DNA of 64,000 nt, taken from NCBI GenBank assembly GCA_022901335.1, contig GCA_022901335.1_3641.1, one strand, 5' to 3'. This stretch comes from a phage. How positions within the stretch are numbered: position 1 is the first letter of the stretch; each line of letters starts with the position of its first letter. Both the position numbers and the translations under genes were made by a program. The notes beneath the pieces were generated by a model that ran no database searches, was not told where the DNA came from, and was given only the letters and a program-made list of their open reading frames with translations. This document shows, piece after piece, positions 13,663 to 35,993 of this stretch.

Positions 13663-13671
13663 CCTTTAAAG

Positions 13672-13698
13672 CCCCGCTTCGGCGGGGTTTATTTTTAT
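13672..13698 (+). terminator. rho-independent terminator (CCCCGC-TTCG-GCGGGG + T-run)
   Basis: perfect 6-bp GC stem, TTCG loop, TTTATTTTTAT. Confidence 0.6.
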
Positions 13699-13705
13699 GC
13701 TCAGA

Positions 13706-13734
13706 TTGACTATTGTTACAAAATTTGGTAAAAT
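13706..13734 (+). promoter_or_regulatory. sigma70-like promoter TTGACT-N17-TAAAAT
   Basis: hexamers with 17-bp spacer upstream of GTG-initiated baseplate gene. Confidence 0.5.
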
Positions 13735-13767
13735 ACCTTGTAGAGATTTTCATACCGGAGGAGTGAC

Positions 13768-15258
13768 GTGGCTAAGTATGGATTGACAGAGGCTGGTTTC
13801 GTTATACCAACCCTAAATGACCTAATCGTTGAAACTAAGCAAAGCCTGATCCGTGCTTTTGGCGAAAACTTCAACGTACAGAGTAACTCCGTTGCAGATA
13901 AGCTGACCACTATCTTCAACGAGCGAGAGTATCAACTTATTCTTATGGCAGCATCTGTATACGCATCACAGACGCTGTATGGGGCAGAAGGTATTTACCT
14001 GGATGAGCTTCTTGGAAGACAGGGTATTTACCGAAGAGGCCGTTCTAAATCATCAGGTACCTGCCAGTTGACAATCAACACAACTGTGCCGTACAATATG
14101 ATTTATGATTCCAAAACTTATACGCTGGACAGTGGCAACTTTGTTCTTAGCAATGATGTGCAGGTGGCAGGGAATCTTATTGCCCACAGAATAAATGCTC
14201 CAGACCTAAGGATTGGTAAATACAACTTTCAAATTACCAACCAGACAGATGGAAGTATCAAAACAAAAAGTCTGGTTTTAACAGATAAGGCTCTAGACTC
14301 TTCTGATCTGCCAAGCTTTTACGGAGAGATTAAGCAATTCATTGTCGATAATACAACCCTGTTGAACGACGATTTGATTCAGATCGATATGTTGACAGGA
14401 ACGTTGTGGATAGGGTACAATTCGAATCTTGATCAAGTTGGACTTAACAGCAGAGTAGATTTCAGAGTATCCCCGATTGTAGGGGAAAGAACTATCACAC
14501 TGGATGTTATCGCTAACGAGGCTGGTGAGCTGTCAAGAGAGGCAGAAACCGTGACAACAATGTCACCTACTCCCAGTGGATTTATCAAGCTTACCAACCG
14601 AGAAAGATTCAATGAGGGCAGGGATGTTGAGAAAGACTCAGAGTATCGCTTAAGAGCTTCCAGCACAAAACAGTTAACATCTAAGGCTACCCGTCCTGCA
14701 ATCCTTAGCGCTGTAAGCGAGGTGAAAGGTGTTGAGAAAGTGAGAGTGTTCTCCAACAACACCGATAAAACTGATGCTAAAGGTATACCTCCTTACAAGT
14801 TCCAAGTGGTTGTGTTTGGTGGTGCAACGGAAGACATTTGCCAAGCACTTTACCAAACTATAGCCTGTACGAACAGGACTTATGGTAATATTTTCTACGA
14901 TGTCACTACATCTGACGGTCAAACTGAAAGAATTTATTACTCCAAGGCAAACACCTACCGCCTGGATATGAGAATTACCTACTCCGGTGCTGCGCTTTCT
15001 ACAACCGAAAAAGATGCCATTATAGAGGCTCTTTTGCAGGTTGTTAACGGACTGGATGTTGCAGATACGTTGTATAATATCCAATTGGTAGGTGCTGCAT
15101 CTGCTGCTGTGTCAATAGGCAGATTTAATAGACTGGTAATTCAAGTTAAATCCGTAGGAGCTTCTGATGAAGCTTACACTACAAACGATATTGTTGCGAA
15201 CATGACCGAGGTGTTTGACCTCGACGAAAGTAATATAACTTTCCAACAAACTATTTAA
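13768..15258 (+). CDS. baseplate J-like protein (P2 gpJ / T4 gp6 family)
   Basis: GTG start with RBS GGAGGA; N-terminal MAKYGLTEAGFVIPTL...FGENFNV...S pattern typical of Baseplate_J. Confidence 0.55.
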   Translation: MAKYGLTEAGFVIPTLNDLIVETKQSLIRAFGENFNVQSNSVADKLTTIFNEREYQLILMAASVYASQTLYGAEGIYLDELLGRQGIYRRGRSKSSGTCQLTINTTVPYNMIYDSKTYTLDSGNFVLSNDVQVAGNLIAHRINAPDLRIGKYNFQITNQTDGSIKTKSLVLTDKALDSSDLPSFYGEIKQFIVDNTTLLNDDLIQIDMLTGTLWIGYNSNLDQVGLNSRVDFRVSPIVGERTITLDVIANEAGELSREAETVTTMSPTPSGFIKLTNRERFNEGRDVEKDSEYRLRASSTKQLTSKATRPAILSAVSEVKGVEKVRVFSNNTDKTDAKGIPPYKFQVVVFGGATEDICQALYQTIACTNRTYGNIFYDVTTSDGQTERIYYSKANTYRLDMRITYSGAALSTTEKDAIIEALLQVVNGLDVADTLYNIQLVGAASAAVSIGRFNRLVIQVKSVGASDEAYTTNDIVANMTEVFDLDESNITFQQTI

Positions 15259-15269
15259 GGCGGCGAGAT

Positions 15270-15956
15270 ATGGCAGAGATTAAGTCGGATGTTAACCACA
15301 TCCACGCTCTGCCAGATTTTGTTCAGGGAGGTCTTGACTACCTACCTGGAGATTTTCTGGCTGAGAAGGTTAATTTAGTCACATTCTTAACCGTATACCT
15401 TAAAAGGTTGGAGGATGTTGATAAGATGCTGGTAGGTTTGGCTGAAGGAAGATTGCTTAACAATGCCAGCGGAAGATACCTTGACGAAGTTGGTAATCAA
15501 CTTGGTATTCTTAGGAATGGACTTTCAGATGCTGATTTTCGTGCCACACTAATTATTCAGCAGGCCGCAGCATCAAGGGGCGGGACTCGCGAAGATGTCA
15601 TCTCCACCTTGCGACAATTGTTCGGAAGAGACAATTTCGATACGTGGAAAGGAGACAACTTCAGGTTTGACATAAATATTAGAAAAACTTGCTTTGACAT
15701 ATTGCAGTCTATCGATCAGATCTTAGATATGCTACCATTACCTTGTCATTTGCGTCTTACAGAATCGCAAGGGCAAGCTTTTGGTTTTGAAGGGGACTCT
15801 ACAGCTCTTGGCTTCGGATCAGTGTGGGAAGAAAGCCAATTCGGAGTTGGTGGGCTGGCTACTTTGCTATATGTTCCTGACGTAAGACCTGATTGGGACA
15901 CCACAACCATTTATTGTGAAAGTATTACAGTAAACGCAACTAGACAGGAGGGTTAA
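15270..15956 (+). CDS. baseplate protein (P2 gpI / DUF2612-like)
   Basis: follows J-like gene; LDEVGNQLGILRNGLSDADFR motif resembles gpI-type baseplate proteins. Confidence 0.4.
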   Translation: MAEIKSDVNHIHALPDFVQGGLDYLPGDFLAEKVNLVTFLTVYLKRLEDVDKMLVGLAEGRLLNNASGRYLDEVGNQLGILRNGLSDADFRATLIIQQAAASRGGTREDVISTLRQLFGRDNFDTWKGDNFRFDINIRKTCFDILQSIDQILDMLPLPCHLRLTESQGQAFGFEGDSTALGFGSVWEESQFGVGGLATLLYVPDVRPDWDTTTIYCESITVNATRQEG

Positions 15957-18028
15957 TGGCAACAGCTGTTTTTAAACCTTACCGTGATTACTCTACAATG
16001 GCTGCACAGTTTCATTACCGAACAGTTCAGGATACTGCCGTTCCTGGTAGGGATTATAATCATGTTGAGGGCGATGTAACTATCCCAATTGGGGCAACCA
16101 GTATTGAGATCCCCGTGGAAATTGTTGACAAATTACCCAACAGGTTGCCAAGAAGCTTCTTTATGGAGTTTTCATCAAAATCTCAAGGGGTGATGATTGG
16201 AACACAAAGGGCGAAATGTACAATAGTTTCAGATGAGAATCTTGACAGGATATCTTGGGATACTGTTGAGGAGAGAATGTTTCACCCAAGGTATTGGGTT
16301 ACAACTACTCAGCAGACTGAAAGTACCTGTATTGTTGCAGATAACAACTGTTGTATTAACCGTTTAGTGTCAAGAACATATGGAGGTATGGCTGGGTGCA
16401 TTTGGGAAACAGTTGACAAGTATGACCATTTCGGTATTGGGTTTGATGATCACTATGAGATGAGAAACACCAAGCTTTGGTTCAGAATGTCAATAACCAA
16501 TGCCAGCAACTTCTCCACCCCTGAAAAGATGATTATGACTGTAGACCTTGTTGATGGCACAATCATCTATGTTCCTTTAGCTCAATATGCTGTCAGCATC
16601 TCAGAGGATAAGAATGTTGCAGAGATTCATATTGATTTCGAGGACTGCGTCGGGATGGATCAGAACAACAACATGATGGGTGTTGATCCTCGACAGGTGA
16701 GAAGGATTTTAATACCGCTTATGCCTAAAGACTGGGTAAGTAATAGCACAGACCCGAGAACGGAAAATGTAGAGTGTGAGTTGCGCCTAGATCTGCTCCA
16801 GCCAGACACAGGCTGGAAAATGATGCAACTTAACAATATTCAGGTTAAAGAGCACGACGTTGGGATCTGCACCGCATATGACGATATGTGGAACGTATCT
16901 CCTTTAAGGGTGTTGAACAATATCAAGCGTCTGGGCTATACCGGAACCATAAACCATTATGTTGGTATGAGTCATTATTATGACTACACATGGTCAGGAA
17001 CCCAATGGTCTATAAACAGAACAGGGGCGCTAAACGCTGCAGCTTATAAATGGCATGATGATTTTATGTACAATGCCAAACGACATAACTTCGACGTTAT
17101 GCAATCTGTAAGTTTTGAGCTTTTCAGCGATGCCTGCCCGTTGGAATGGACCCAAAGAGACTGGAACGATAACTACGCTAAAACAGGGTATACACCTTGT
17201 AGCTACCTCCTGTCTCCAACCATTGAAGAGGGTATGAATTTCCTTACTGCAGTATTTAAGAATTTTGCATCAGCCGCTATGAGAAACAACCTGCCAGTGA
17301 TTATGCAGGTTGGTGAACCGTGGTGGTGGTACAATACCGATACTCGTAGACCTTGTATTTATGATTACCCTACAAAGCAGGCGTTTTATGATGAGACAGG
17401 TGAGTATGCATTAGATATTGGGACTATTGACGATCCTAAAACTGGCGGTGTTTACGACAAGTATGTAGCATTTTGTCGTGGTAAGCTTGGCGCTCGTATT
17501 GCGGCTATTTCAAAGGCAATAAAGGCACACGCTGCATCAGCTCAGATGACAGCTTTGCTGTTTTTCCCAACCATCATGGAAACCGAGCTTACGCAAAAGC
17601 TGAACCTTGCTGACCAATATAAAAAGGAAGCAGGTGCTCTTGATTTCTTCTGCACCGAGTGCTACGATTGGGTGATGCAGGGGGGTATTGAAAAGGCAAA
17701 AGAGTCTGTAAACATACCTATCGTTAAGTTAGGTTGGCAACCGTCTGAAATACAATACCTTGCAGGGTTCGTTCCTAGTAAAGAGCTTGCTCCGGTATAT
17801 GGATACGACCCAACTAGGAATTACCAAGAATTTTTATGGAGATGTATTTGCGGAAACATGGCAACTATAGAGTATAGATACCCTGAGGTAAAACAGTATG
17901 TGTGGGCATACCCGCAAGTAATGTCTGACAGCATCACTGTTACCGCTAGAGATTCTACCGTGCTTCATATGGGGCAGGTTGCTCTGAAAGGGTATGTAGA
18001 AGATGTTGTCCCGCCAGACTTCTCATAA
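15956..18028 (+). CDS. structural protein with Calx-beta-like N-terminal domain, possible glycanase
   Basis: AVPGRDYNHVEGDVTIPIGATSIEIPVEIVD resembles a Calx-beta motif; rest unassigned. Confidence 0.4.
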   Translation: MATAVFKPYRDYSTMAAQFHYRTVQDTAVPGRDYNHVEGDVTIPIGATSIEIPVEIVDKLPNRLPRSFFMEFSSKSQGVMIGTQRAKCTIVSDENLDRISWDTVEERMFHPRYWVTTTQQTESTCIVADNNCCINRLVSRTYGGMAGCIWETVDKYDHFGIGFDDHYEMRNTKLWFRMSITNASNFSTPEKMIMTVDLVDGTIIYVPLAQYAVSISEDKNVAEIHIDFEDCVGMDQNNNMMGVDPRQVRRILIPLMPKDWVSNSTDPRTENVECELRLDLLQPDTGWKMMQLNNIQVKEHDVGICTAYDDMWNVSPLRVLNNIKRLGYTGTINHYVGMSHYYDYTWSGTQWSINRTGALNAAAYKWHDDFMYNAKRHNFDVMQSVSFELFSDACPLEWTQRDWNDNYAKTGYTPCSYLLSPTIEEGMNFLTAVFKNFASAAMRNNLPVIMQVGEPWWWYNTDTRRPCIYDYPTKQAFYDETGEYALDIGTIDDPKTGGVYDKYVAFCRGKLGARIAAISKAIKAHAASAQMTALLFFPTIMETELTQKLNLADQYKKEAGALDFFCTECYDWVMQGGIEKAKESVNIPIVKLGWQPSEIQYLAGFVPSKELAPVYGYDPTRNYQEFLWRCICGNMATIEYRYPEVKQYVWAYPQVMSDSITVTARDSTVLHMGQVALKGYVEDVVPPDFS

Positions 18029-18040
18029 TCAGGAGATAAA

Positions 18041-19081
18041 ATGTCAAAACCTAGTTTTCCATTAGAGATTTGGGCAGAGGAGGATCAGGTTCTGCCTAAC
18101 ACCCACAGACAGAACAGGCTACGCCCGATTGATGATTTGTGGAGAAAAGGTTGGGATCTTGGTCAAAAGCCCTCATGTGAAGAACTTAACTATATTTTCA
18201 ATATGCTTGGAACTTGGGCAAAATATATTGCTGACGAGCAGATCCCCGCTCAAGAAGGCCGTTATCTGGTACGTGATAATAACCTGAGTGATCTTTTGAA
18301 CATTCCTGTTGCCCGTAGAAACCTTGGGATTATTACTAAGGAAGAGGCAGATGCCAGGTATGTAAAAGTTACAGGTGATACAATGACAGGCCCATTGGGT
18401 TTGCAACGTATCAACTTTAAAGCTGCCGAGACAGATAAGGCTTGGATAGAGACAACTATTGGCCCAGATAAGACAACTCTCGACTTCGGGTTAAGTGATA
18501 ATATTGGGTCGTTTGATGATGGTAGTACATCTACAGTAGATGCGTTTCGTTGGAGATTCCAGCCAACTCAGCCGGATATTAATCCAGAGTTCACTTTGAT
18601 GTACCTTAACGCGATCACGGCTAACCGTGCGCTGTTGAAAGTGGTCGGCAATGTTGAAGTTGTCGATAACATGAGGTGCAATAACCTTACTATCAGCAAT
18701 ACAGCAACATTCACCAACTGCAATGTAGCTAGTCAGTTGACGGCTGGGTCAGTATATGTCAATGGCGGTGCAAGTTGTGACAGTATGGTTGTAAGAAGTC
18801 AGCACTGTGTTGTCGGTAACAGAAATGTGGTGCGATCTGTGAATGGAGTGACGGCTAACGGTAACGGTGATGTAACAATCACTATCCCGCAGACAGGTGT
18901 GCAAGACATCAGAATCGGTGCAAGACTTGTTGACGGCGTTTCTGAATCTCCAATTCGCAACGGCTACGTTGTCACAGGCTGGCATTTCGGTGACAAAAAA
19001 GAGATGCGTGGTTCAACCTACTGGGCAGGACCTTTACAAAAACTTGTAAACGGTCAATGGATCACTGTTAATTATGCATAG
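18041..19081 (+). CDS. tail fibre protein (paralog A)
   Basis: RBS AGGAG; paralogous to 20096..21139 (shared N-terminus and C-terminal QKLVNGQWIT motif). Confidence 0.55.
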   Translation: MSKPSFPLEIWAEEDQVLPNTHRQNRLRPIDDLWRKGWDLGQKPSCEELNYIFNMLGTWAKYIADEQIPAQEGRYLVRDNNLSDLLNIPVARRNLGIITKEEADARYVKVTGDTMTGPLGLQRINFKAAETDKAWIETTIGPDKTTLDFGLSDNIGSFDDGSTSTVDAFRWRFQPTQPDINPEFTLMYLNAITANRALLKVVGNVEVVDNMRCNNLTISNTATFTNCNVASQLTAGSVYVNGGASCDSMVVRSQHCVVGNRNVVRSVNGVTANGNGDVTITIPQTGVQDIRIGARLVDGVSESPIRNGYVVTGWHFGDKKEMRGSTYWAGPLQKLVNGQWITVNYA

Positions 19082-19095
19082 ATCGGAGGACTAGC

Positions 19096-19680
19096 ATGAA
19101 AATACTTCAAGAGTTTAAACTTTACCAACCGGGATCTGGCGAATACCACGCCAACAAGGGTACCAAGGAGCTGACCCCTCAAGAGGTTGAGGATTACACC
19201 GCATACACTGGGTATTTTTTACGTAATGATGATGGCGATTGGTATGTGCAGTCACGAACATTGCGACAAGAAAATCCGGGTTGTATCTTCCTACTTGTTG
19301 ACGAGAAGGGAATTCTTAAGACATCTACAGAAGAACCTGATGCCTTATGGCCTGCTCCAGGTCTTCGTGTGGTTATCGCCAAAAAAGAAGAGGTACCAGA
19401 AAACATTATGCTTCACCACGACGCTTTGCGTTTAGTTGGTGATGAATTTGTCACAGATAATGAATTCTTTGTTCAACAGGCAGAGGGTGTCATCGAGACA
19501 GAACTTGCTTGGGCTACTGCTAGAATTGGTGCCTATCAAGACATGATTGACCTTGAATATGATCTTACTGATGACCAGAAACGTAACATCAGAGATTTGA
19601 AAATGTACAGGGTAAAACTTCTTGAAATAGATACATCTAAAGCCCCTGACATTTTCTTCCCGGAGCGACCTACCCTCTAA
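19096..19680 (+). CDS. tail fibre assembly chaperone (Tfa / Caudo_TAP family)
   Basis: C-terminal YRVKLLEIDTSKAPDIFFPERP matches the tail assembly chaperone signature. Confidence 0.7.
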   Translation: MKILQEFKLYQPGSGEYHANKGTKELTPQEVEDYTAYTGYFLRNDDGDWYVQSRTLRQENPGCIFLLVDEKGILKTSTEEPDALWPAPGLRVVIAKKEEVPENIMLHHDALRLVGDEFVTDNEFFVQQAEGVIETELAWATARIGAYQDMIDLEYDLTDDQKRNIRDLKMYRVKLLEIDTSKAPDIFFPERPTL

Positions 19681-19691
19681 GAGGAGGTGTT

Positions 19692-20006
19692 GTGGAGTTG
19701 GATTTGGCGGCATTGTACGGTATCTGTATGGGTACCGTTGTCCCGATCTGTGTATGGGCTTTCAACCAGTGGCACACCAAATGGAAAGGCATTTCCCAGA
19801 GGTTGGATGAACTGGAGAAAGACCTCATCTTAGTGAAAAACAGTATGGTTACAAAAGATAGACTTGATTCCGTTATCGAGACCCGGTTAAGCAAGCTAGA
19901 GGCAGATATTAACGACCTTAAGCAGGATGTTAGGACAGATGTTTCCGGTATCCGAGCTGATGTACAAAAGATCTTGCACATGCTTGTAGAGCATAGTAAA
20001 AGGTAA
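19692..20006 (+). CDS. small membrane protein with coiled-coil, possible holin-like
   Basis: GTG start with RBS GAGGAGG; one hydrophobic helix then coiled-coil; directly after Tfa as holin t follows gene 38 in T4. Confidence 0.35.
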   Translation: MELDLAALYGICMGTVVPICVWAFNQWHTKWKGISQRLDELEKDLILVKNSMVTKDRLDSVIETRLSKLEADINDLKQDVRTDVSGIRADVQKILHMLVEHSKR

Positions 20007-20014
20007 ACAAAGGT

Positions 20015-20048
20015 CAGAACGGAAAGGACTCCGTTCTTGCATTTTGTT
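20015..20048 (+). terminator. rho-independent terminator (AGAACGG/CCGTTCT hairpin + T-run)
   Basis: 7-bp stem, 8-nt loop, TTTTGTT; overlaps the -35 of the next promoter. Confidence 0.5.
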
Positions 20049-20065
20049 CTCTAAAGTGTTAAAAT
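20037..20065 (+). promoter_or_regulatory. sigma70-like promoter TTGCAT-N17-TAAAAT
   Basis: hexamers with 17-bp spacer upstream of fibre paralog B. Confidence 0.45.
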
Positions 20066-20095
20066 AGTCCTAAGGAATTTTCTCAGGAGAACGTG

Positions 20096-21139
20096 ATGAC
20101 TAAACCAGTTATCCCTCTTGATATTTGGGCCAATCAGGATGTTGTGCTTGAAAATACGGGAGAGTTGAATAAGTCTCAACCAAAAAAAGAAGAGAGATTG
20201 AAAGGTTGGGATATGACACAAAGAATGGCATGTGAAGTTGTTAACTTTGAACTTCACATGCTTTCTGCGTGGTTAAAGCATTTAACAGAAGATGTTGTCC
20301 CAGGATGGGATAATAGATTCTTAAGGGTCACTAATAATCTGGCAGACGTTCCAGACAAAGCTGCTGCACGTCAAGTTCTCAATGTATACTCGCCTGAAGA
20401 AATGGACGATCTATATGTTGACAAGTCTGGAGACATAATGACTCAGACTCAAACTTTAGGTCTTCAAAGAATCGAGTTTGCATCTGCGTCAACAGACAAT
20501 GCGGCAATATATACCACCATAACTCCAGACAAGACGACAATGGATTTCTGGATTATGGACAACATCGGTGGTGCTGACGGCACAGATCTTGATGATCCTT
20601 CTCACCAAATAGACGGGTTCCGTTGGAGATTTCAACCTTCTGGTGGGCAGCCTGTGTTTTCGGCTATGAAGCTCAATGCTATAACTGCCAACCGTGCAAG
20701 ACTGGCTATCCAAGGAAATCTTGAATGCAATGATGCAAAAAGCTCCTCTGCAAATGCTAATGCGGTAACGATACCTAGAGCCACTGTTAATGGACAACAA
20801 TCCTGCGGAAGCGCTCAAATAGGTGGAAGAGTTGATTGTAACGATGAAACAGTCAGGGGTCAATATGCAACAGTTGGTGGAAGAAACGTGGTCCGCAGGG
20901 TAAATGGTAGTAGCGCAGACAGTAGTGGTAACCTTACTATTCCTATGCCTAGTAGGGGTGTTGAAGATGTAAGGATAGCAAACCGTTTCAGAACCACCTA
21001 CAGAGAATCAAGAGTGTACCCTGGGCATGTAATGTGCTCCGGCAATTACGCCTATAAACACCCGTATCAGGGCGACTATTGGACTGGAGCTATTCAAAAA
21101 TTTGTAAACGGTCAATGGATCACCATATCTTATGCTTAA
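20096..21139 (+). CDS. tail fibre protein (paralog B)
   Basis: ATG 20096 after RBS AGGAGA; paralog of 18041..19081. Confidence 0.55.
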   Translation: MTKPVIPLDIWANQDVVLENTGELNKSQPKKEERLKGWDMTQRMACEVVNFELHMLSAWLKHLTEDVVPGWDNRFLRVTNNLADVPDKAAARQVLNVYSPEEMDDLYVDKSGDIMTQTQTLGLQRIEFASASTDNAAIYTTITPDKTTMDFWIMDNIGGADGTDLDDPSHQIDGFRWRFQPSGGQPVFSAMKLNAITANRARLAIQGNLECNDAKSSSANANAVTIPRATVNGQQSCGSAQIGGRVDCNDETVRGQYATVGGRNVVRRVNGSSADSSGNLTIPMPSRGVEDVRIANRFRTTYRESRVYPGHVMCSGNYAYKHPYQGDYWTGAIQKFVNGQWITISYA

Positions 21140-21148
21140 AGAGGGTAA

Positions 21149-21415
21149 ATGAAATTAACTCAGTTTTTATGGGGACTGGTTGCAGCATCTGATGACCCTA
21201 CAAAAGTGTCCCAATCTAAGCTATGGTCAAACATAGGCATGGCAGTGATGACTGGGGTTTTTATTCATATGGGGTACAATGATACGCTTCCTGAATGGTA
21301 TGCGTGGATATACGCACCTTCAGTAGCCTGCCCCCAGCTTATTAGCAAATTCATCTCGCTCCGGTGGGGTTGCCAGCACCCTGACCACGTTAAAAACGAA
21401 GAGCAAAAAGCTTAA
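21149..21415 (+). CDS. small membrane protein
   Basis: RBS AGAGGG; hydrophobic helix SNIGMAVMTGVFIHMGY. Confidence 0.4.
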   Translation: MKLTQFLWGLVAASDDPTKVSQSKLWSNIGMAVMTGVFIHMGYNDTLPEWYAWIYAPSVACPQLISKFISLRWGCQHPDHVKNEEQKA

Positions 21416-21424
21416 GGAGAAATC

Positions 21425-23170
21425 ATGGCGCAAGACATGACAAGCTTCGAGCAGGCGGTAGATCAAGTAATTGTTGATTCTGAACGTTTGCACTTGATTG
21501 TCAACGGTAACGCTGTGGATGAAGTTGTCGTAGAGGATGGGACCACCATCCCTACGGTACGAAAAGCCATGCTTGACACCCTTTATTTTAAAACGCCACC
21601 AATCCCTTGGGCGTATGGTGCATCCACAACAGTTTTTAACCAGTTGTATGAGTTTAAAGGGGATACAGGCCCTCAGTGGTGGTACGCCCCAGCAGCATCA
21701 AAATCTAACCCGGTTAGGATGCCAGCAGATCCTTCACAATCTCCGAACTGGAGATTATATACCGATTCTGCAGTAATGGCAAAATACTACGCAAAACTTA
21801 ACAGCCCAAGATTCGAAGGTGACCCGCGAGTACCTACACCTCCAATGGATGATAAGTCCGAGTCTATAGCAAACACAGAGTTTGTTGTTGACTATGTGGA
21901 TAGCATATTTAAAGCCATGGAGGGGATGAAAGTTACTGTAGGGTCTTTGGTGGTAAAAGGTCTTACAGAACTTGCTAACACTATAGTTGGTGGCACCCTT
22001 ACCTTACACGGGCCTGTTAATGGAGCGGATTCTACTGCACGCTTCAGGAACCTAATCCTTACTGCAAATACTTCTACACTAACTTTTGCGTGGAGCGATC
22101 CTAAGCATGCAGACTGGAGAAGCACAGAGCTGCAACCTCATGAAGTGGTCACCCACAGAGTTATAGCTGACACTATAACTTCTGGGAAACCAGTGGCTAA
22201 TAACAACGATGTGCATTTTGATGGTCTAGGTAATAACTTTTTTGACTACGTGTACATTCGTGGTAACTCCATGAAGGCAGCAACCGAACCGACATTGCAG
22301 GTTGATGGGACCACCAGGGTTAAGAACCTTGAGGTGACAGGCACCGTTACAGGGATAACCTACTCTGTAGATGGCACCATGATCTACCCTAGCTATATTG
22401 AAAGCACGGGAGATGCACTGATCAATGGAGATTTAGAGGTTGGCGGATCTATAGTCATTCGTGGCACAGCATCTGTCCAGAACATATCTTTAAATACTCT
22501 GAGGGTGAATGAGCGTGCCACTTTTGAAGGGGAAGGGCTTACCGCCAACAAAGGTACGATTACCGAGCTGACAACCACTACTCTAACTGCAACAACTGCA
22601 AACTCTGAAAACTGCAACGTTACCCGCAACTTGCAGGTAAATGGAGATGTTAGTTTAAACGCAGCAGGTACGGGAACCACTTATCTTCACAACCTTGAAA
22701 TATCCGGCACGGTGACTGGGTGGCTGCCAGACTTCTCTAATGTCAACTTTGTCTGCAATGGCATTAACTCCAGTGGTAAGATAACCACCTCTCAAGAAAT
22801 TGAGGCTGGTAAAACTATTACTGCCCCTACTTTCCACGCAGGGAAGGTAGATTTTGATTTAGAGGAGGTTGACGCATCCAGTGGGACATGGACACCTAAC
22901 GGGCAGGCCAGCATGTATGTTGTCCACGCGAAAGGGGATTTTACAATAGGACAGTGGCCTGGGACATCAGCGGAAGATAAACCTTATCCATTCACTGCAG
23001 TTATCTATGTCATTCAGGATGCTGTAGGTCACAACGTGACTTTGCACGATAAGTATGCTATCCTGTCGGCAACACCTGTTATTAACAACAAGGCTAACAG
23101 TGTTACCTTGCTGCAATTAACGTATTGTGGTGTTGGTGATATTGTAGACGTAGTAATTGCACAACGTTAA
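21425..23170 (+). CDS. side tail fibre protein (P2 gpH / lambda Stf-like)
   Basis: RBS AGGAG; SPRFEGDPRVPTPPMDDKSESIANTEFV matches the conserved fibre N-terminal motif; repetitive beta-rich C-terminus. Confidence 0.6.
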   Translation: MAQDMTSFEQAVDQVIVDSERLHLIVNGNAVDEVVVEDGTTIPTVRKAMLDTLYFKTPPIPWAYGASTTVFNQLYEFKGDTGPQWWYAPAASKSNPVRMPADPSQSPNWRLYTDSAVMAKYYAKLNSPRFEGDPRVPTPPMDDKSESIANTEFVVDYVDSIFKAMEGMKVTVGSLVVKGLTELANTIVGGTLTLHGPVNGADSTARFRNLILTANTSTLTFAWSDPKHADWRSTELQPHEVVTHRVIADTITSGKPVANNNDVHFDGLGNNFFDYVYIRGNSMKAATEPTLQVDGTTRVKNLEVTGTVTGITYSVDGTMIYPSYIESTGDALINGDLEVGGSIVIRGTASVQNISLNTLRVNERATFEGEGLTANKGTITELTTTTLTATTANSENCNVTRNLQVNGDVSLNAAGTGTTYLHNLEISGTVTGWLPDFSNVNFVCNGINSSGKITTSQEIEAGKTITAPTFHAGKVDFDLEEVDASSGTWTPNGQASMYVVHAKGDFTIGQWPGTSAEDKPYPFTAVIYVIQDAVGHNVTLHDKYAILSATPVINNKANSVTLLQLTYCGVGDIVDVVIAQR

Positions 23171-23179
23171 TATATCTAA

Positions 23180-23204
23180 CCGCTCCTGACGGGGCGGTTT
23201 TCTT
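23180..23204 (+). terminator. rho-independent terminator (CCGCTCC-TGAC-GGGGCGG + T-run)
   Basis: 7-bp stem with one G-U pair followed by TTTTCTT. Confidence 0.45.
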
Positions 23205-28863: not shown

Positions 28864-28898
28864 AAATAAAAAGGGGCCAAACGGCCCCTTTCTTTTTA
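28864..28898. terminator. bidirectional rho-independent terminator between convergent blocks
   Basis: 8-bp stem AAGGGGCC/GGCCCCTT, loop AAAC, A-run on one side and T-run on the other. Confidence 0.65.
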
Positions 28899-28901
28899 TA
28901 A

Positions 28902-29102
28902 TTAGTAATACTCCCAACATGCTCCATCTTCAGACGGCTTGACGCGCTTACCTTTATGGTCAACATAGGTATAGCCACAACCTTCACAAATAACAGGTGC
29001 TGCATAGCCTTCCTTCCACTGATCCTCAGTGATCAGACCTTCCAAATCTTTGCAGTCAAAGCCAAACAACTCTTCAGAGCAATCTTTACAAAAATCAGCC
29101 AT
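28902..29102 (-). CDS. small zinc-ribbon protein
   Basis: 66 aa with CxxC...CxxC Cys pairs. Confidence 0.45.
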   Translation of the reverse strand: MADFCKDCSEELFGFDCKDLEGLITEDQWKEGYAAPVICEGCGYTYVDHKGKRVKPSEDGACWEYY

Positions 29103-29105
29103 TTC

Positions 29106-29588
29106 TCAGTCCTCGCATTTAACAAATTTTTCTACAGATCCACCAAGCACAGCTTGTTGCTTGATGGCACTCTCTTCATCATAGTGGATAGACTTATGTT
29201 CCGTACCTCCAAACTTGCCTGTGTGGAAGGTGTGCACCCAAATCTCTTTAGGAAGGGATTTATTCTCTTCTTCCACCAGCTCCCATATACCCCACAGGTG
29301 GTCTGTAATATCTTTGATGAAATATCCCTCGCCAAGATTTGTATTCACACTATAGGCTGATTCGTGGTCTCCACAAATATAACGGAAGGCGGTGTACTCT
29401 TTCCCAGGTGTGAAGTGGGTATCCATCAGTATAGCTGTTAAAGAATTCGGGTCTCGAAAGCCCAAGAACTTTAGTTTAACAATTTCGACGTTCACACTTG
29501 CAAGATTATCCATGACAATCTCCTCTGCTTGGTTGATGAGATAATCATATATAAATCTGGTGTTGATGTCAAGCTTAATTTTAAGCAA
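29106..29588 (-). CDS. hypothetical protein
   Basis: 160-aa ORF packed in the minus-strand operon. Confidence 0.5.
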   Translation of the reverse strand: MLKIKLDINTRFIYDYLINQAEEIVMDNLASVNVEIVKLKFLGFRDPNSLTAILMDTHFTPGKEYTAFRYICGDHESAYSVNTNLGEGYFIKDITDHLWGIWELVEEENKSLPKEIWVHTFHTGKFGGTEHKSIHYDEESAIKQQAVLGGSVEKFVKCED

Positions 29589-29676
29589 TTTGAGAGGGTA
29601 TTTTATTCAGGAGGGTAATCTCACAGGGTAGGGCAATTTATGAAGGCACAGGCCTCGTTTGAGGCCTTAAAATAGG

Positions 29677-30057
29677 TTATGACACTTTGACGTAGCGCTC
29701 TGACAAAGCTGGGAAGCCAAAAGCAGTACCTATACTACCGTATGCTACCCACCATTGAAGTTCATCGTGACACCATTTTCCGATCAGAAAGGTGCTGGGG
29801 TAGCGAGTCAGTATTTTGGCATAAGCTTTAGGGTCTGCATCCTCTGGGATAATGATACTTGGAACATCTTTGTTATGACCACAGCAGCAGTTTAGAGTTT
29901 TCAATCCTGCCGCCCATAGACTCATGATAGGCTTAGCCATACACTTATCAAGGCACACACGTTTTTTGCCGTCACGGAGCTTTTTAGGCACATCAACGAT
30001 AACATTTTGATGCTTGGCACCTTTCACTTTCCAATTATAGGATTTACACTTGCACAT
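29677..30057 (-). CDS. Cys-rich putative metal-binding protein
   Basis: 126 aa with CKC...CLDKC...CCCGH cluster. Confidence 0.5.
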   Translation of the reverse strand: MCKCKSYNWKVKGAKHQNVIVDVPKKLRDGKKRVCLDKCMAKPIMSLWAAGLKTLNCCCGHNKDVPSIIIPEDADPKAYAKILTRYPSTFLIGKWCHDELQWWVAYGSIGTAFGFPALSERYVKVS

Positions 30058-30087
30058 TTAATCAATCTCCATCTAGAAAGCAATACT

Positions 30088-30258
30088 TTACTTAAAATCT
30101 TTGTCACCTATTACGATTGCACGAATCCACTCATTGCGATGTTCAATGGCGGTAAGGTGTAACATAATGCAGTGATTGTCATTACCAAACACGGTGCGGT
30201 AAGCTTTAGCAGCACCATGATATAACTTCCACATCAGGTAATGATATCTTCGCCTCAT
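30088..30258 (-). CDS. small hypothetical protein (56 aa)
   Basis: below the 60-aa track cutoff; ATG overlaps upstream stop as ATGA; fills an otherwise 200-bp gap. Confidence 0.3.
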   Translation of the reverse strand: MRRRYHYLMWKLYHGAAKAYRTVFGNDNHCIMLHLTAIEHRNEWIRAIVIGDKDFK

Positions 30259-30734
30259 GGCTCTTTCTCCGGTTCAGGATCTGGGTAATCTTCAATAATA
30301 AAAGGCCATCCGTTCCGCTTAGCCTCAGACTTGTACTCAATCTCCTTCATTGCAAACTCTAACTGATTTTTAGCCGGAATACATGCCGGAGAATCATCAA
30401 TCCAGATATCTGGGTAGATATCAAACTGCGCCAGGTAGGCTGCCTTCTGAACACCGCCAGTATAAAACACACCAACATCGAGCTCCTTGCGCCAATACTC
30501 AATGTCTACGTTGTCTTGAGTGATGAATCGGAAAGTCACAAGGTAGACTGTCCACCCTTCCTTTTTCAAGTCCCTAATCAGGCGGGAGAAGATGAAAGGA
30601 CTCGCATTAAATGTTCCATCAAAGTCAATGGCAATGATGTGTGTGCCGTGGCGAGTCTCGTATGGATTGCTTGTGGTAAGATTACTGTAGTTAAAAGGAA
30701 CTTCTTCCCCGCAGTAGCTGTAGTCCATATTCAC
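30255..30734 (-). CDS. HAD-superfamily phosphatase-like protein (possible nucleotidase)
   Basis: motif I IIAIDFDGT (DxDGT) and downstream WIDDSP acidic motif. Confidence 0.5.
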   Translation of the reverse strand: MNMDYSYCGEEVPFNYSNLTTSNPYETRHGTHIIAIDFDGTFNASPFIFSRLIRDLKKEGWTVYLVTFRFITQDNVDIEYWRKELDVGVFYTGGVQKAAYLAQFDIYPDIWIDDSPACIPAKNQLEFAMKEIEYKSEAKRNGWPFIIEDYPDPEPEKEP

Positions 30735-31006
30735 ACCTTCTCGTTGATAAATTTACGGGCTGTTTGGTGAGTTGTTTCTGCTGTCTTCAGAATGATATTA
30801 ATTTTATTGTCAAGATCATTCATCTCTGCAGTTAATTCAGGAATCTCTCCAGTATGCATAGTGAAATCATACATAGACATGCCCAGAATCTCATTGATGC
30901 GACGGTTGCATTCTGCAGCACGCTGGTTCATTTTCCAAGCTAATACCAAAGCCTCCTGCGTAGCCTCTAGTGCAAAGTCTAATACGTCGGCCTCTTCTTT
31001 CGTCAT
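30731..31006 (-). CDS. hypothetical protein
   Basis: 91-aa ORF, overlap-coupled to downstream gene. Confidence 0.45.
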   Translation of the reverse strand: MTKEEADVLDFALEATQEALVLAWKMNQRAAECNRRINEILGMSMYDFTMHTGEIPELTAEMNDLDNKINIILKTAETTHQTARKFINEKV

Positions 31007-31063
31007 CTCAGTCTCTCCTGTTGTATTGTTGGTAGGTGTATGAATACCTTATAACTCACCTTT

Positions 31064-31630
31064 TTATTCAAACTGCAATAGTAAGTCCACCACCGCGCTA
31101 GGTCTGTCAACAAATTCCCCAGGTCCACATGCCCACAGAGGGTATCCGTCTACATACCGCCAAATCCAACCTGCAGTGTGTAGCTCAAGCAGGGCAGTAC
31201 CGTCCTTACTGTCAACCACCCTTTCCCACAGTGTTGGGCAGCGAAGCTTGAGAATCGGATCACCCCCCTTATACCCATCCATGTAGATACCCATTGCAAA
31301 GTTCAGCATCATCTTTTTGTGCACTGATCTCTTATTGAGAGTGCTCATCACTTCCTCTTTGTGAATGTTTGTAAGCTTCTCCCTGGCTACCCGCAGATCG
31401 TTGCAATCATTGTTCAGAAGATCTTCCAGGCACTTGATCCGAAGGTCGTGAATGTCTTTGTCGTGTACCGTTGGCACAGGGTCGTAGCGGTATAGCACTG
31501 TTGATACAAGGTTGCTCGGGTGTGGGTCTGACAGCAACCCATAACCCCAATACTCTTCTGTATCTGAAAGGACAAGACACCCAATGTCTCTGTCAAGCTT
31601 TCCTGTGTTGTAAGCCACATTGACCGCCAT
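31064..31630 (-). CDS. hypothetical protein
   Basis: 188-aa ORF in operon. Confidence 0.5.
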   Translation of the reverse strand: MAVNVAYNTGKLDRDIGCLVLSDTEEYWGYGLLSDPHPSNLVSTVLYRYDPVPTVHDKDIHDLRIKCLEDLLNNDCNDLRVAREKLTNIHKEEVMSTLNKRSVHKKMMLNFAMGIYMDGYKGGDPILKLRCPTLWERVVDSKDGTALLELHTAGWIWRYVDGYPLWACGPGEFVDRPSAVVDLLLQFE

Positions 31631-31632
31631 GA

Positions 31633-31878
31633 CTATAGCTCCACTAGCAAAGTGCTTTCAAAGTGCCGTTCATGCAGACCGTTGTAAGGGACCACTTCCA
31701 CAACGCCATCACGGACATACGGGGCCATCATGGTGGCATAATCCCCAAACGGGTTGGTATTGTCACTAACCACAACCACCTTCTGCCCTTCCTTGGCAGA
31801 GTGCCAAATAGACCTGCACTTCATCAGGTGTTCGAGAGCTCCAGGTAAAATTTTGTTACGTTCTTTACGGGTCTTCAT
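31633..31878 (-). CDS. hypothetical protein
   Basis: 81-aa ORF. Confidence 0.45.
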   Translation of the reverse strand: MKTRKERNKILPGALEHLMKCRSIWHSAKEGQKVVVVSDNTNPFGDYATMMAPYVRDGVVEVVPYNGLHERHFESTLLVEL

Positions 31879-32324
31879 AACAGGTATAGCTCCTTATGAA
31901 AGTGGTCTTTTAATTTCTCACTGAGAAACCTTTTGATACCTTCCTCTAAAGTGTTTTCGATATAGTCCAGCTTAACTGCTTCGATGGACATATCATAGAT
32001 CGCCAGCTCTAAGCTGTCAAGTCCCATCATAGCATGAACCATAAGATTTTCATCTTCAGATACATTCAGGGGACTTCCTATAACATCTGTAGGGAGGATA
32101 GTTTCCCAATTATTCTGGGGGGTAGTTCTCCCGCCATCCACTTTACGGCGCAGTTCGAAGGTGTTCTTAGTGTAGAACACTTCATAAGAAACGATACGAC
32201 TATCGCTCTCATAATAAACGAAGTTCAGGTAGGAGCCTAGCCGCAGTCGGCAAACTTCTACCCCAAACCATTGTTTCTTATAAGAATTCAGGCTAATGCT
32301 ATCGCATTCACGTTTGCTCAACAC
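31875..32324 (-). CDS. hypothetical protein
   Basis: 149-aa ORF, overlap-coupled. Confidence 0.5.
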   Translation of the reverse strand: MLSKRECDSISLNSYKKQWFGVEVCRLRLGSYLNFVYYESDSRIVSYEVFYTKNTFELRRKVDGGRTTPQNNWETILPTDVIGSPLNVSEDENLMVHAMMGLDSLELAIYDMSIEAVKLDYIENTLEEGIKRFLSEKLKDHFHKELYLL

Positions 32325-32339
32325 GGCTCTCTCCTTTTG

Positions 32340-32573
32340 TTAATCTTCGTAAATCAGGATTTCTGCTTTAGGTTTTCGTGCTTTCAGGTCCAGCTCTATC
32401 CAGTGCACCATAGCTGTTTCAAGAAAAACAGCTTGGATGCATCCGTCCTCAGCGTGCCCCACCAACATAACAAGATCTTCACCTTCGTCATCTGCATCAC
32501 GAACATACAGAATCTCTCCAGATTCAAAGTCTTTCACAACCTGATTGCTGGATAATTTACGAATTTTTGCCAT
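32340..32573 (-). CDS. small protein, divergent member of tandem paralog family
   Basis: 77 aa; weak similarity to the three 87-aa paralogs upstream. Confidence 0.4.
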   Translation of the reverse strand: MAKIRKLSSNQVVKDFESGEILYVRDADDEGEDLVMLVGHAEDGCIQAVFLETAMVHWIELDLKARKPKAEILIYED

Positions 32574-32574
32574 A

Positions 32575-32838
32575 TCAGAAACCCTCTAAAAAGCTCTTGT
32601 AGAAAATAATTTCAGTGTCCACACCTGTCACGATCTTATCGTTTCGGATCTCATCGGTAAGATAGGTGTCAAAACGCAGAACCTGTGTGGTGTTGTCACA
32701 CATCCACTCAGCTGTGACCATTGCGAAAATCTTAGCATCTTCATTATCTGGTGTGAATGTTACCACCTCACCGCACTTAAACTTTTCGATAGGCTGAGTG
32801 TTAGCTTTCGGTTCTGCGATAGTGATTTTTGTGGTCAT
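32575..32838 (-). CDS. small protein, tandem paralog family member 3
   Basis: 87 aa; shares CGxVV...VTGVDTEIIF core with neighbours. Confidence 0.5.
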   Translation of the reverse strand: MTTKITIAEPKANTQPIEKFKCGEVVTFTPDNEDAKIFAMVTAEWMCDNTTQVLRFDTYLTDEIRNDKIVTGVDTEIIFYKSFLEGF

Positions 32839-33364: not shown

Positions 33365-33379
33365 AAATAGCCTCCTCTC

Positions 33380-34861: not shown

Positions 34862-34873
34862 TGGCCCCTGTTA

Positions 34874-35914: not shown

Positions 35915-35924
35915 CAAAAACGTG

Positions 35925-35953: not shown

Positions 35954-35993
35954 GCACCCATTCGAAAGAAAACTAACATAGGAGCACTTACTT

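Follow-up and report, generated by a model that had tools for sequence, protein, structure and literature searches.

A probable short-tail-fibre module of an rV5-like Vequintavirus with two paralogous fibres, a Mu-type chaperone and two small proteins

A 64,000-nucleotide stretch of phage DNA (GenBank assembly GCA_022901335.1, contig GCA_022901335.1_3641.1; hereafter the window) carries two similar fibre genes, each followed by a gene for a small protein and separated by a gene for a chaperone. Does this arrangement equip the phage with two different receptor-binding proteins, and are the small proteins partners of the fibres, lysis proteins or something else? The window belongs to a Vequintavirus. 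Its DNA is 97-98% identical to that of phages rV5 and JES2013, and 4.5 kb of it is matched by megablast at 97-98% in 116 rV5-like records whose annotation agrees. The five open reading frames listed in an earlier sequence-only reading are all present at the coordinates given there, all on the + strand and with good ribosome-binding sites (Table 1), and they are the orthologs of rV5 gp33, gp32, gp31, gp30 and gp29, by which names they are called here. For gp30, the ATG at 20096 is better spaced from the Shine-Dalgarno sequence than is the GTG at 20093. The region is in all probability the short-tail-fibre (STF) module of an rV5-like Vequintavirus, comprising two old paralogous baseplate fibres, a Mu-type chaperone and two small uncharacterised proteins. 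Such a locus has already been published for rV5 and is ordinary within the genus.

Table 1. Features of the short-tail-fibre locus and its flanks in window coordinates
Feature	Position	Strand	Evidence
Upstream: baseplate wedge (gp36), baseplate protein (gp35), gp34	13768..18028	+	Pfam Baseplate_J; phrog_4056; Pfam TIM-barrel_NCTSP
Short tail fibre 1, rV5 gp33 ortholog, 346 aa	18041..19081	+	phrog_4465 E=1e-171
Tail fibre assembly chaperone, rV5 gp32 ortholog, 194 aa	19096..19680	+	Pfam PF02413 Caudo_TAP, phrog_136
gp31 ortholog, 104 aa, GTG start	19692..20006	+	phrog_5345 E=2e-48
Hairpin then T-rich tail, possible weak intrinsic terminator	20016..20037	+	terminator-like scan match
Late-promoter-like motif TGTTAAAATA (rV5 P030), upstream of gp30	20057..20066	+	pattern TGKTAAAATA
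Short tail fibre 2, rV5 gp30 ortholog, 347 aa	20096..21139	+	phrog_4465 E=6e-166
gp29 ortholog, 88 aa	21149..21415	+	phrog_1322 E=3e-32
Downstream: gp28 fibre (581 aa) and closing terminator	21425..23199	+	phrog_4549 E=4e-250

The two fibre proteins are paralogs, as had been proposed from the sequence alone. They are 43% identical over their full length (BLASTP, E=3e-96), and both match the phrog_4465 'tail fiber protein' profile end to end (gp33 1-346/342, E=1e-171; gp30 1-347/342, E=5.8e-166). By this full-length profile match both qualify as the Vequintavirinae short tail fibre (phrog_4465; RBPseg class TC1). The earlier description of conserved ends and a divergent centre does not hold, the alignment being instead a mosaic in which the central shaft (residues 100-200) is the most conserved part at 50-70% identity. 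Residues 1-20 are about 50% identical, 40-95 about 27-37%, 205-240 about 23%, 241-275 50-57% and 281-320 27-37%, and the last 25 or so residues are conserved. Over the last 60 or so residues the two tips share 43% identity. Since the predicted receptor-binding tips differ, alternative receptor binding would still be compatible with the data. Both proteins take their place among many candidate adhesins in the window, where at least five had been predicted: a 222-aa fibre, an 865-aa tail protein, a 1266-aa S74 fibre, a J-like central fibre, gp34, gp33, gp30, gp28 and an 1878-aa Ig protein. Among these, gp34 is an N4-gp65-like TIM-barrel protein (Pfam TIM-barrel_NCTSP, E=4e-80, plus NCTSP_N and Calx-beta).

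Structural relatives can be found for both ends of the fibres. Residues 1-108 of gp33 match residues 1-111 of the phiTE 'Short tail fiber' (PDB 9cuy, chain 9cuy_c; phmmer, E=1.4e-19), and residues 1-83 of gp30 match the same N-terminus (phmmer, E=1.9e-8); with a profile the match reaches 1.8e-22. Both fibres thus possess an N-terminal domain of about 100 residues whose homologue in phiTE is the joint between the short fibre and the baseplate wedge. At the other end, gp33 286-343 matches residues 440-501 of Mu tail fibre protein S (5yvq_A; phmmer, E=1.9e-6), and a profile built from gp33, gp30 and the Seunavirus STF matches gpS 435-502 with its positions 280-343 (E=1.6e-6). The match of gp30 alone to Mu gpS is not significant by phmmer, and the link runs via gp33 and the profile; by this route both fibres would carry a C-terminal domain of about 65 residues homologous to the distal tip of gpS. 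The probable layout of gp33 is accordingly a wedge-attachment joint (residues 1 to about 100), a shaft in the middle and a gpS-like distal tip in the last 65 or so residues. gp30, gp32 and gp33 were all found in rV5 virions by mass spectrometry (PMC3606486). In Bas49 and Bas54, RBPseg maps at 7-9.5 A show TC1 density but could not separate the paralogs.

The two copies have diverged unequally. The single STF of Seunavirus is closer to gp33 (45% identity, 295 bits) than to gp30 (39%, 220 bits), and over adaptor residues 1-75 the STF1 orthologs are 57-63% identical to Seunavirus as against 45-51% for the STF2 orthologs. The gp33 tip is 55-61% identical to those of phi92 gp147, PVP-SE1 gp46 and others, while for the gp30 tip no relative above 43% was found outside the genus. 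By both sequence and position gp33 is the ortholog of the single STF in related genera; it represents the ancestral type and carries a tip that occurs widely. gp30, by contrast, is a paralog restricted to Vequintavirus, whose N-terminal baseplate adaptor has diverged and whose tip is genus-specific, more variable and faster-evolving. In one metagenomic lineage (L006) the same tip type is present on both paralogs, at 82% identity, and a different tip is therefore not an obligatory feature of the duplication; in a second lineage (P0021) the gp30-type tip is kept as a distinct type (78% identity). At least one lineage has exchanged or replaced its gp30 tip.

Two STF copies occur in about 117 Vequintavirus records and nowhere else, all other relatives having one, so that the fibre duplication is genus-specific and fixed. 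In Seunavirus and Certrevirus, which have a single fibre, the gene order is STF, Tfa, a gp31-like gene, a gene for a 157-aa multi-pass membrane protein and a gp29-like gene; in Phapecoctavirus, too, a gp31 homolog follows Tfa (E=4e-8). The 157-aa gene is present in 108 single-STF relatives and absent from the present locus. By gene order, gp30 sits in the slot of the 157-aa gene, between the pre-existing gp31 and gp29, and STF-Tfa-gp31 is a triplet whose order is conserved across four genera (Vequintavirus, Seunavirus, Certrevirus and Phapecoctavirus). The notion that each fibre gene is followed by a small membrane protein thus survives as a description of the locus and fails as a repeated unit: gp31 bears no relation to gp29 (E=16), and both are present in single-fibre relatives. 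They are part of an older conserved cluster and were not copied when the fibre was duplicated.

The transcription signals set gp30 apart as well. The pattern TGKTAAAATA occurs three times in the window, always on the + strand, against 0.48 expected, and the copy ahead of gp30, TGTTAAAATA, is identical to the P030 late promoter of rV5 (Kropinski 2013, Table S4C, PMC3606486). The divergent locus L006 has TGCTAAAATA at the same position. The hairpin between gp31 and gp30 has an RNAfold dG of -12.8 kcal/mol and is not among the rV5 terminators in Table S4D of the same paper (PMC3606486); it is possible that it closes a gp36-gp31 late transcription unit as a weak terminator. Upstream of gp36 lie a terminator (13669-13690) and a late motif (13726-13735), and the terminator-like hairpin at 23178-23199, which is rV5 t028, closes the gp30-gp29-gp28 unit. 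gp30 is therefore preceded by a hairpin and a predicted late promoter of its own.

The two fibres have only one chaperone gene between them. Residues 122-192 of gp32 match Caudo_TAP with 45.4 bits against a cutoff of 22.1 (E=1.1e-11) and the protein matches phrog_136 at E=2e-36, bearing out the Tfa-type chaperone expected between the fibre genes; gp32 can be classed by homology as a chaperone of the Mu gpU/lambda Tfa type. The gene lies directly 3' of gp33, whereas gp30 lacks a dedicated chaperone gene, and a tblastn search of the 64-kb window with gp32 finds nothing but gp32 itself. The extreme C-terminus of the fibres is conserved and co-varies between the paralogs within a genome. By analogy with Mu, gp32 would nucleate fibre trimerisation at this C-terminus and stay bound.

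What, then, might the two fibres do? Both would be trimers hanging from the six baseplate wedges, with tips that bind the LPS core in the last, irreversible step. gp33 would contribute the widespread tip, and the derived tip of gp30 would probably recognise a different core variant or a neighbouring structure. Kropinski et al. (2013) proposed two fibres for 'two chemotypes of LPS' (PMC3606486), and an outer-core glucose of LPS was identified as the terminal receptor of the group in the BASEL study (PMC8594841). According to the latter, isolates show essentially no allelic differences in these fibres, and all Vequintavirinae depend alike on waaC/waaG (PMC8594841). This lack of variation argues against a role for the fibres in host-range variation within the genus, and the BASEL pattern would fit a common sugar ligand for both fibres equally well. 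Furthermore, phiTE and phi92 have one STF site per wedge, and the need to place two paralogs counts against the main reading.

A less probable alternative is that the fibres are redundant or purely structural duplicates, both binding the same conserved LPS core glucose and providing valency or occupying two baseplate positions, not a second specificity. Besides the uniform fibre alleles and LPS-core dependence across Vequintavirinae (BASEL, PMC8594841), the tip type shared by the L006 paralogs, the strong conservation of the shaft and extreme C-terminus between the paralogs and the systematic difference between their N-terminal adaptors, which would fit two docking positions, all speak for redundancy. 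It is harder to reconcile with the tips of the rV5 lineage, which share only about 43% identity and differ most strongly within the Mu-S-like distal domain, with the retention of a distinct gp30-type tip in the P0021 lineage, or with the contrast between a gp30-type tip lacking close relatives outside the genus and a widespread gp33-type tip.

The small proteins differ from one another. gp31 has a strong N-terminal hydrophobic segment (maximum Kyte-Doolittle 19-residue mean 1.9, at residues 5-23), and its AF2 model (pLDDT 87) has helices at 5-50 and 55-103. This agrees with the membrane/coiled-coil protein anticipated after the chaperone, and gp31 is predicted from the model to consist of an N-terminal transmembrane helix and a long helical hairpin or coiled coil of about 80 residues. 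With no K/R before the segment and three after it, a pattern also seen in Seunavirus, the positive-inside rule predicts an N-out/C-in topology with a cytoplasmic coiled coil. The second proposed membrane protein, gp29, does follow gp30, yet its membrane status is weak: the two hydrophobic stretches reach Kyte-Doolittle values of 1.0-1.05, below the usual cutoff of 1.6, and the AF2 model is of low confidence (pLDDT 58). It comprises two moderately hydrophobic helices and a charged C-terminus, and the C-terminal tails of its relatives are variable and highly charged. No Pfam or NCBIfam match was found for gp29; an exhaustive search yielded 72 cluster representatives of its family, and all 40 members sampled fall in phrog_1322. 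Virion mass spectrometry of CB7 lacks CB7_32-35, and none of four gp31/gp29 tryptic peptides searched for is in the rV5 table (0/4); for small hydrophobic proteins, such absence is weak evidence.

It seems plausible that gp31 and gp29 are non-virion accessory proteins associated with the membrane, with gp31 functionally tied to the STF-Tfa pair. It is attractive, if speculative and on balance unlikely, to consider that gp31, as an inner-membrane protein whose very short, acidic N-terminus lies outside, is an unrecognised third component of a Mu-type short-fibre module, tethering for example the fibre/Tfa or baseplate-wedge assembly to the membrane, and that the STF paralogs occupy different baseplate positions via their diverged adaptors, giving one virion two terminal-receptor specificities simultaneously.

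That gp31 and gp29 are instead lysis proteins (holin/antiholin) in a late fibre operon is improbable. In its favour, the T4 holin gene t lies directly after fibre gene 38, both small-protein genes are in late transcription units, and gp29 is a small protein that combines two hydrophobic helices with a charged C-terminus, the latter being long and variable among its relatives. Furthermore, the rV5 holin gp129 is a prediction only, no holin having been established experimentally (PMC3606486). The holin suggestion of the sequence-only reading nevertheless gains nothing from family searches, which returned no holin family match for gp31, gp29 or 40 gp29 relatives (Pfam, NCBIfam, PHROGs). The neighbours of both genes are fibre genes, with no endolysin linkage. 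In rV5 the lysin gp89 and the candidate holin gp129 are not adjacent to each other and lie outside the gp27-gp37 fibre block, and a TMHMM/Phobius scan by Kropinski et al. singled out only gp129 (PMC3606486). The helices of gp29, at about 1.0, are below the transmembrane threshold, and gp31, which has one strong transmembrane segment (1.9), continues into a C-terminal coiled coil of about 80 residues that is predicted to be cytoplasmic and keeps its place after Tfa in four genera. Holin candidates are found elsewhere in the group, and the Rz/Rz1 pair of rV5, PVP-SE1 and CB7 is beside TerL. An i-spanin role was also rejected for gp31, as it needs an N-in transmembrane segment and a periplasmic coiled coil and the next gene encodes a fibre, not an o-spanin lipoprotein; no lipobox Cys was found in gp31, gp29 or the Phapecoctavirus 'lipoprotein' homolog.

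Least probable of all is a membrane system of gp31, gp29 and, in relatives, the 157-aa protein that would act by superinfection exclusion, or by masking the receptor in cell debris, and so protect infected cells or phage progeny. The model is taken from other phages in which small membrane proteins or lipoproteins are encoded beside receptor-binding genes, with T5 Llp and T4 Imm/Sp as precedents. In the present group, small membrane-associated proteins are conserved within a receptor-binding module across genera, were not detected in virions and in the case of phrog_1322 are placed by PHROGs in 'moron, auxiliary metabolic gene and host takeover', but exclusion genes are usually early whereas gp31 and gp29 lie in late structural operons tightly spaced to fibre genes, the terminal receptor is an LPS sugar, whereas masking by a small partner would call for a protein, there are no annotated relatives (PADLOC not included), and Vequintavirus has lost the 157-aa middle gene without a substitute.

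Few broad-host-range coliphages are isolated as often as the rV5-like phages, which serve in O157 typing and as components of therapy cocktails; for host-range engineering it is important to know which of their many fibres is responsible for the last, irreversible step of contact. For this genus a duplicated short fibre is textbook knowledge and adds nothing new. The modest value of the re-examination lies in distinguishing a conserved and widely shared gp33 from a derived, faster-evolving gp30 with a private tip and a diverged adaptor, and in assigning the small proteins to an older cluster instead of regarding them as fibre partners created by duplication. gp31, so far unstudied, consistently accompanies the fibre-chaperone pair. 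The published accounts of rV5 do not mention that the two adaptors and tips have diverged to unequal extents, that one lineage has a single type of tip on both paralogs, that gp30 stands in the position of the 157-aa membrane gene, or that the STF-Tfa-gp31 triplet is conserved.

Comparison with known systems begins with rV5 itself, in which gp33-gp32-gp31-gp30-gp29 correspond one by one to the present genes, with identical order and 97-98% nucleotide identity (PMC3606486; BASEL, PMC8594841, Fig S5D). The paralogy (42.3% identity), the T4-gp12-like/Mu-S-like nature, the chaperone and the P030 late promoter were already published for rV5 (PMC3606486, PMC8594841). There is no substantive difference from rV5, and the window represents another isolate of the genus.

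A functional analogue is T4 gp12, which sits on the baseplate as a trimer and attaches irreversibly to the LPS core; it uses the chaperone gp57A, not Tfa, and attaches differently, through gp10/gp11. HHpred similarity to gp12 was reported by Kropinski et al. (PMC3606486). No gp12 chain is among the PDB matches at E<=1 for gp33 or gp30 (phmmer) or for the profile (hmmsearch), and membership in the T4 gp12-type fibres was rejected for want of a sequence match, leaving gp12 as an analogue only.

The likeness to Mu gpS and gpU/TfaMu (PDB 5YVQ) is closer, as the C-terminal 65 or so residues align to gpS 435-502 and a Caudo_TAP gene follows directly. The chaperone is reported on the virion in both Mu and rV5 (PMC9608196 for North et al. 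2019; PMC3606486), and TfaMu remains on the fibre tip according to the summary of North et al. (2019) in PMC9608196. Mu differs in its 504-aa fibre, its baseplate adaptor and its invertible G segment, which supplies the tips S/U and S'/U'; the present locus has two fixed paralogs, each of them expressed, a single chaperone and an N-terminal joint of the phiTE type.

The homologous N-terminal wedge-docking domain is found in phiTE gp236 (PDB 9CUY) and phi92 fibre III, gp147. Residues 3-92 of the phiTE STF bind wedge 1 (PMC11972413), and gp147 forms six trimers on wedge gp145 (PMC13450770), giving in both phages six downward-pointing trimers per baseplate. Both differ from the present locus in having a single STF, with no second paralog under its own promoter. 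The phiTE fibre departs further in its long coiled coil and Ig-rich distal part and targets flagella, whereas phi92 gp147 shares the gp33-type tip at 59.6%.

The DNA of this fibre locus is closely related to that of known phages: over the 4.5 kb around it, identity is 97–98% to 116 rV5-like myophage records of the genus Vequintavirus, the best matches including JES2013 and rV5 itself. The ORFs which a sequence-only reading had placed here are present with credible Shine-Dalgarno sequences, and that reading of the locus is correct; the locus itself is known, annotated and published. Kropinski et al. 2013 (PMC3606486) gave an identity of 42.3% between gp30 and gp33, described a resemblance to T4 gp12 by HHpred and predicted a late promoter, P030, ahead of gp30. 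An earlier treatment of this fibre locus is also found in BASEL (Maffei et al., PMC8594841), while RBPseg (2025) assigned both fibres to structural class TC1, a short tail fibre (STF) with a Mu-like C-terminus, for which density is visible at 7–9.5 Å in two rV5-like phages. The core of the finding was therefore already known. Some 16 to 21 records tagged 'Campylobacter phage', host Campylobacter jejuni (MG0656xx), are 97–98% identical to the locus in the window; the host label of these unannotated records looks doubtful.

Features of the short tail fibre locus and its neighbours (annotations of gp33 to gp29 are those of rV5 and 'inoa')
Feature	Position	Strand	Description
gp36			Baseplate wedge; upstream neighbour
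gp35			Baseplate protein; upstream neighbour
gp34	15956-18028	+	690 aa; Calx-beta, NCTSP_N, full TIM-barrel_NCTSP (E=4e-80); upstream neighbour
gp33 (STF1)	18041-19081	+	Tail fibre
48-nt patch, gp33 copy	19018-19065		3' end of gp33
gp32	19096-19680		Tail fibre assembly protein
gp31	19692-20006		Hypothetical; 104 aa
Hairpin	20016-20037		dG -12.8 kcal/mol; before the gp30 late motif; missing from the published rV5 terminator list
Late-promoter motif	20057-20066	+	TGTTAAAATA; before gp30
gp30 (STF2)	20096-21139	+	Tail fibre
48-nt patch, gp30 copy	21076-21123		3' end of gp30
gp29	21149-21415		Membrane protein; 88 aa
gp28	21425-23170	+	Fibre; downstream neighbour; halves of the L006 ortholog are Phage_phiTE_241_N and Phage_phiTE_241_C (PF26208/PF26209; precomputed Pfam)
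gp27			Ig protein, 1878 aa; follows gp28

The two ~347-aa proteins are indeed paralogs, 43% identical from end to end (E=3e-96) and each matched along its entire length by phrog_4465. The accompanying claim of conserved ends and divergent central regions is not borne out by the alignment, in which the central shaft is the best-conserved part. Identity is highest (50–70%) at residues ~100–200, the divergent segments are residues 40–95, 205–240 and 281–320, and conservation of the ends is limited to ~20 N-terminal and ~25 C-terminal residues. A PDB search with gp33 aligned its residues 1–108 with the N-terminal part of the phiTE 'Short tail fiber' in the baseplate structure 9CUY (E=1.4e-19) and its residues 286–343 with the distal end of protein S, the Mu tail fibre (5YVQ, E=1.9e-6); the match of gp30 to 9CUY is weaker (E=1.9e-8). 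In a profile combining gp33, gp30 and the Seunavirus STF, positions 280–343 align with Mu S 435–502.

Searching with gp30 by tblastn revealed two copies per genome in ~117 Vequintavirus genomes and a single copy in all other relatives, namely Seunavirus, the Klebsiella, Cronobacter and Erwinia phages, and Certrevirus. The Phapecoctavirus STF has only its N-terminal ~76 residues in common with either paralog. Similarity to the single Seunavirus STF is greater for gp33 (45%, 295 bits) than for gp30 (39%, 220 bits), and gp33 retains the slot immediately upstream of the Tfa gene. The nucleotide sequences of the paralogs are 52% identical overall, with 42% identity at the third positions of conserved codons; the duplication is therefore old. 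With synonymous sites near saturation, recent gene conversion between the paralogs was rejected. The exception to this near-saturation, and the sole strong nucleotide match of the two genes, is a 48-nt patch at their 3' ends, 85% identical against the 52% background, within which a 22-nt exact match, TTGTAAACGGTCAATGGATCAC, encodes VNGQWIT. The patch may have anchored recombination, or it may reflect the constraint of a chaperone common to both fibres.

The paralogs have diverged unequally. Over the adaptor (residues 1–75), STF1 orthologs are 57–63% and STF2 orthologs 45–51% identical to Seunavirus STFs, and the phiTE joint motif PIDDL..KGWD.G.KP..EE.NY is kept by gp33 and not by gp30. The gp33-type tip is 55–61% identical to those of phi92 gp147, PVP-SE1 gp46, Phapecoctavirus and several ~53-kb Salmonella and E. 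coli phages, and is conserved at ≥99% in 95 records within Vequintavirus. For the gp30-type tip nothing above ~43% was found outside the genus, and within it the tip is more variable (≥99% in 16 records, 95–99% in 82 and 90–95% in 18).

L006, a 141-kb metagenomic contig (Logan SRR25011148_463) with the same gene layout as the window and its STF genes at L006:2852-5990, bears further on the tips. STF1 of L006 shares 73% identity with gp33, its STF2 only 49% with gp30 (34% in the tip). Between STF1 and STF2 of L006, identity is 43% in the body and 82% in the tip (the last ~60 residues). Two histories would account for this: an exchange of tips between the paralogs of L006 or, in the rV5 lineage, replacement or rapid divergence of the gp30 tip. 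The L006 tips carry many synonymous differences, so the exchange or replacement is not recent. A second lineage, P0021, whose STF2 is 78% identical to gp30, has a gp30-type tip. L006 shows that the tip of STF2 can be exchanged or replaced from one lineage to another. The final four residues covary per genome, reading ..YA/..YA in the window and VQTL/VQTL in L006; together with the 3' patch, this is the pattern expected of a chaperone serving both fibres, or of local gene conversion. These observations on the adaptor, the tip, L006 and the C-terminus are incremental new points on the locus.

It is plausible that gp30 differs from gp33 in receptor specificity, and perhaps in docking site too. 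That the two fibres are redundant, with no second specificity, is the less probable reading; in its favour, the same core glucose is required by all tested Vequintavirinae, and a single tip type on both paralogs suffices for L006.

The sequence-only reading had also implied a module of fibre plus membrane protein, yet gp31 and gp29 show no relationship to each other (E=16). For gp31 the membrane/coiled-coil assignment holds: its N-terminus is a strongly hydrophobic helix (Kyte-Doolittle 1.9), and a confident AlphaFold2 model (pLDDT 87) is a long helical hairpin of helices 5–50 and 55–103, for which Foldseek against PDB and BFVD returned generic helical hairpins only (E>0.3). The case of gp29 as a membrane protein is less clear; two hydrophobic stretches are present but reach only about 1.0, and its model is poor (pLDDT 58) and unfit for fold search. 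PDB sequence searches with either protein gave no meaningful match, and a word-indexed protein search with gp31, gp29 and gp30 returned close relatives alone. In family searches gp29 belongs to phrog_1322 alone. An exhaustive search gathered 72 cluster representatives, all 40 of those sampled being phrog_1322 and none having a meaningful Pfam match; these relatives share a 74-residue core with variable, highly charged tails. The 'DUF2644' label of one gp29-like metagenomic protein was rejected, hmmscan giving no match to that family even at E≤10.

Gene order in the relatives accounts for the arrangement. In Seunavirus, Certrevirus and Phapecoctavirus the gene after Tfa encodes a gp31 homolog, and thus STF-Tfa-gp31 is a conserved triplet. 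In Phapecoctavirus, L005:8989-9324 (JR319_gp045), directly after Tfa, encodes a full-length gp31 homolog (E=4e-8); it lacks a lipobox cysteine, so its 'lipoprotein' annotation is probably wrong. The gp29-like gene is mobile in order, lying just upstream of the wedge gene in Phapecoctavirus, where the adjacent 'tail protein' was rejected as a gp31 homolog (E=22). In SalP219 (Seunavirus) and phiTE (Certrevirus), the genes for wedge, baseplate, STF, Tfa and a gp31-like protein (104–112 aa) are followed by those for a 152–157-aa protein with about five hydrophobic segments, a gp29-like protein (86–89 aa) and the next fibre. The middle gene occurs in 108 records, essentially single-STF relatives, and no remnant of it was found in the window, rV5 or L006. 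Vequintavirus fills its slot with the hairpin, the late-promoter motif and gp30. The repeat of fibre and membrane protein is an accident of insertion into an older gene cluster, of which gp31 and gp29 are conserved members, not fibre-linked duplicates. In CB7 virions, mass spectrometry detected the wedge and baseplate proteins, the STF and the fibre after it, but neither Tfa nor the three small proteins; none of four gp31/gp29 tryptic peptides sought in the rV5 table was present.

The acidic N-terminus of gp31 is free of K/R, and a K/R cluster lies past the transmembrane domain; an N-out/C-in topology with a cytoplasmic coiled coil is therefore predicted, as it is for the Seunavirus homolog. 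Neither an i-spanin nor a periplasmic protein of the RI/Sp type fits this prediction well. An i-spanin role was rejected on this predicted topology, on the missing o-spanin partner and on the published position of the Rz/Rz1 pair of rV5, PVP-SE1 and CB7, which adjoins the large terminase. The suggestion that the small membrane proteins are holins, or a holin/antiholin pair, is very improbable: no family match supports it, and the genomic linkage is wrong for such a role.

The late-promoter motif occurs three times in the whole window, always on the + strand; another of these copies, at 13726, comes after the terminator that precedes gp36. From this placement of hairpin, terminator and motif, each fibre gene probably leads, or lies within, a late unit of its own: gp36-gp31 for gp33 and gp30-gp28 for gp30. 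Pairs of hairpin and late motif at 13669-13735, 20016-20066, 23178-23199 and 28870-28891 split the fibre region into gp36-gp31, gp30-gp28 and gp27. Just past the gp27 terminator, at ~29000-36000, GC and AT skew reverse sign and large ORFs, among them 33380-34861 and 34874-35917, lie on the minus strand, a divergently transcribed block equivalent to rV5 gp26 and below.

TIM-barrel_NCTSP, found in gp34, is the fold family of N4 gp65, the 'non-contractile tail sheath' receptor-binding protein. A candidate role of gp34 is to bind the N4 glycan receptor; alternatively, it may be a docking partner of the extra fibre. Its slot between the baseplate genes and STF1 is seen in Vequintavirus only; the homolog is placed elsewhere in Phapecoctavirus and is missing at this position in Seunavirus and Certrevirus. 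As its L006 ortholog carries both phiTE_241 halves, gp28 is homologous to the fibre gene phiTE_241; on gp28 of the window itself, neither family was reported by the local Pfam copy.

Sequence homology identifies both gp33 and gp30 as short fibres of the baseplate, with a docking joint of the phiTE type and a tip like that of Mu S. In phiTE, a joint of residues 3–92 fixes the trimer to wedge protein 1, one per wedge (PMC11972413), and the homologous phi92 gp147 is fibre III, six trimers of which occupy the underside of the wedge protein gp145 (PMC13450770). The paralogs would likewise be trimers on six wedges, with tips that may bind the LPS core. The presence of a Tfa-type chaperone is upheld, Pfam Caudo_TAP exceeding its curated threshold on gp32, the only such gene in the 64-kb window; a PDB sequence search with gp32 gave no meaningful match. 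Homology identifies it as a Mu-U-type chaperone. In TfaMu a variable N-domain touches the fibre, conserved C-terminal helices power trimerisation, and the chaperone remains on the distal Mu fibre after binding (PMC9608196); gp32 may similarly help at least gp33 to trimerise and then stay on the tip.
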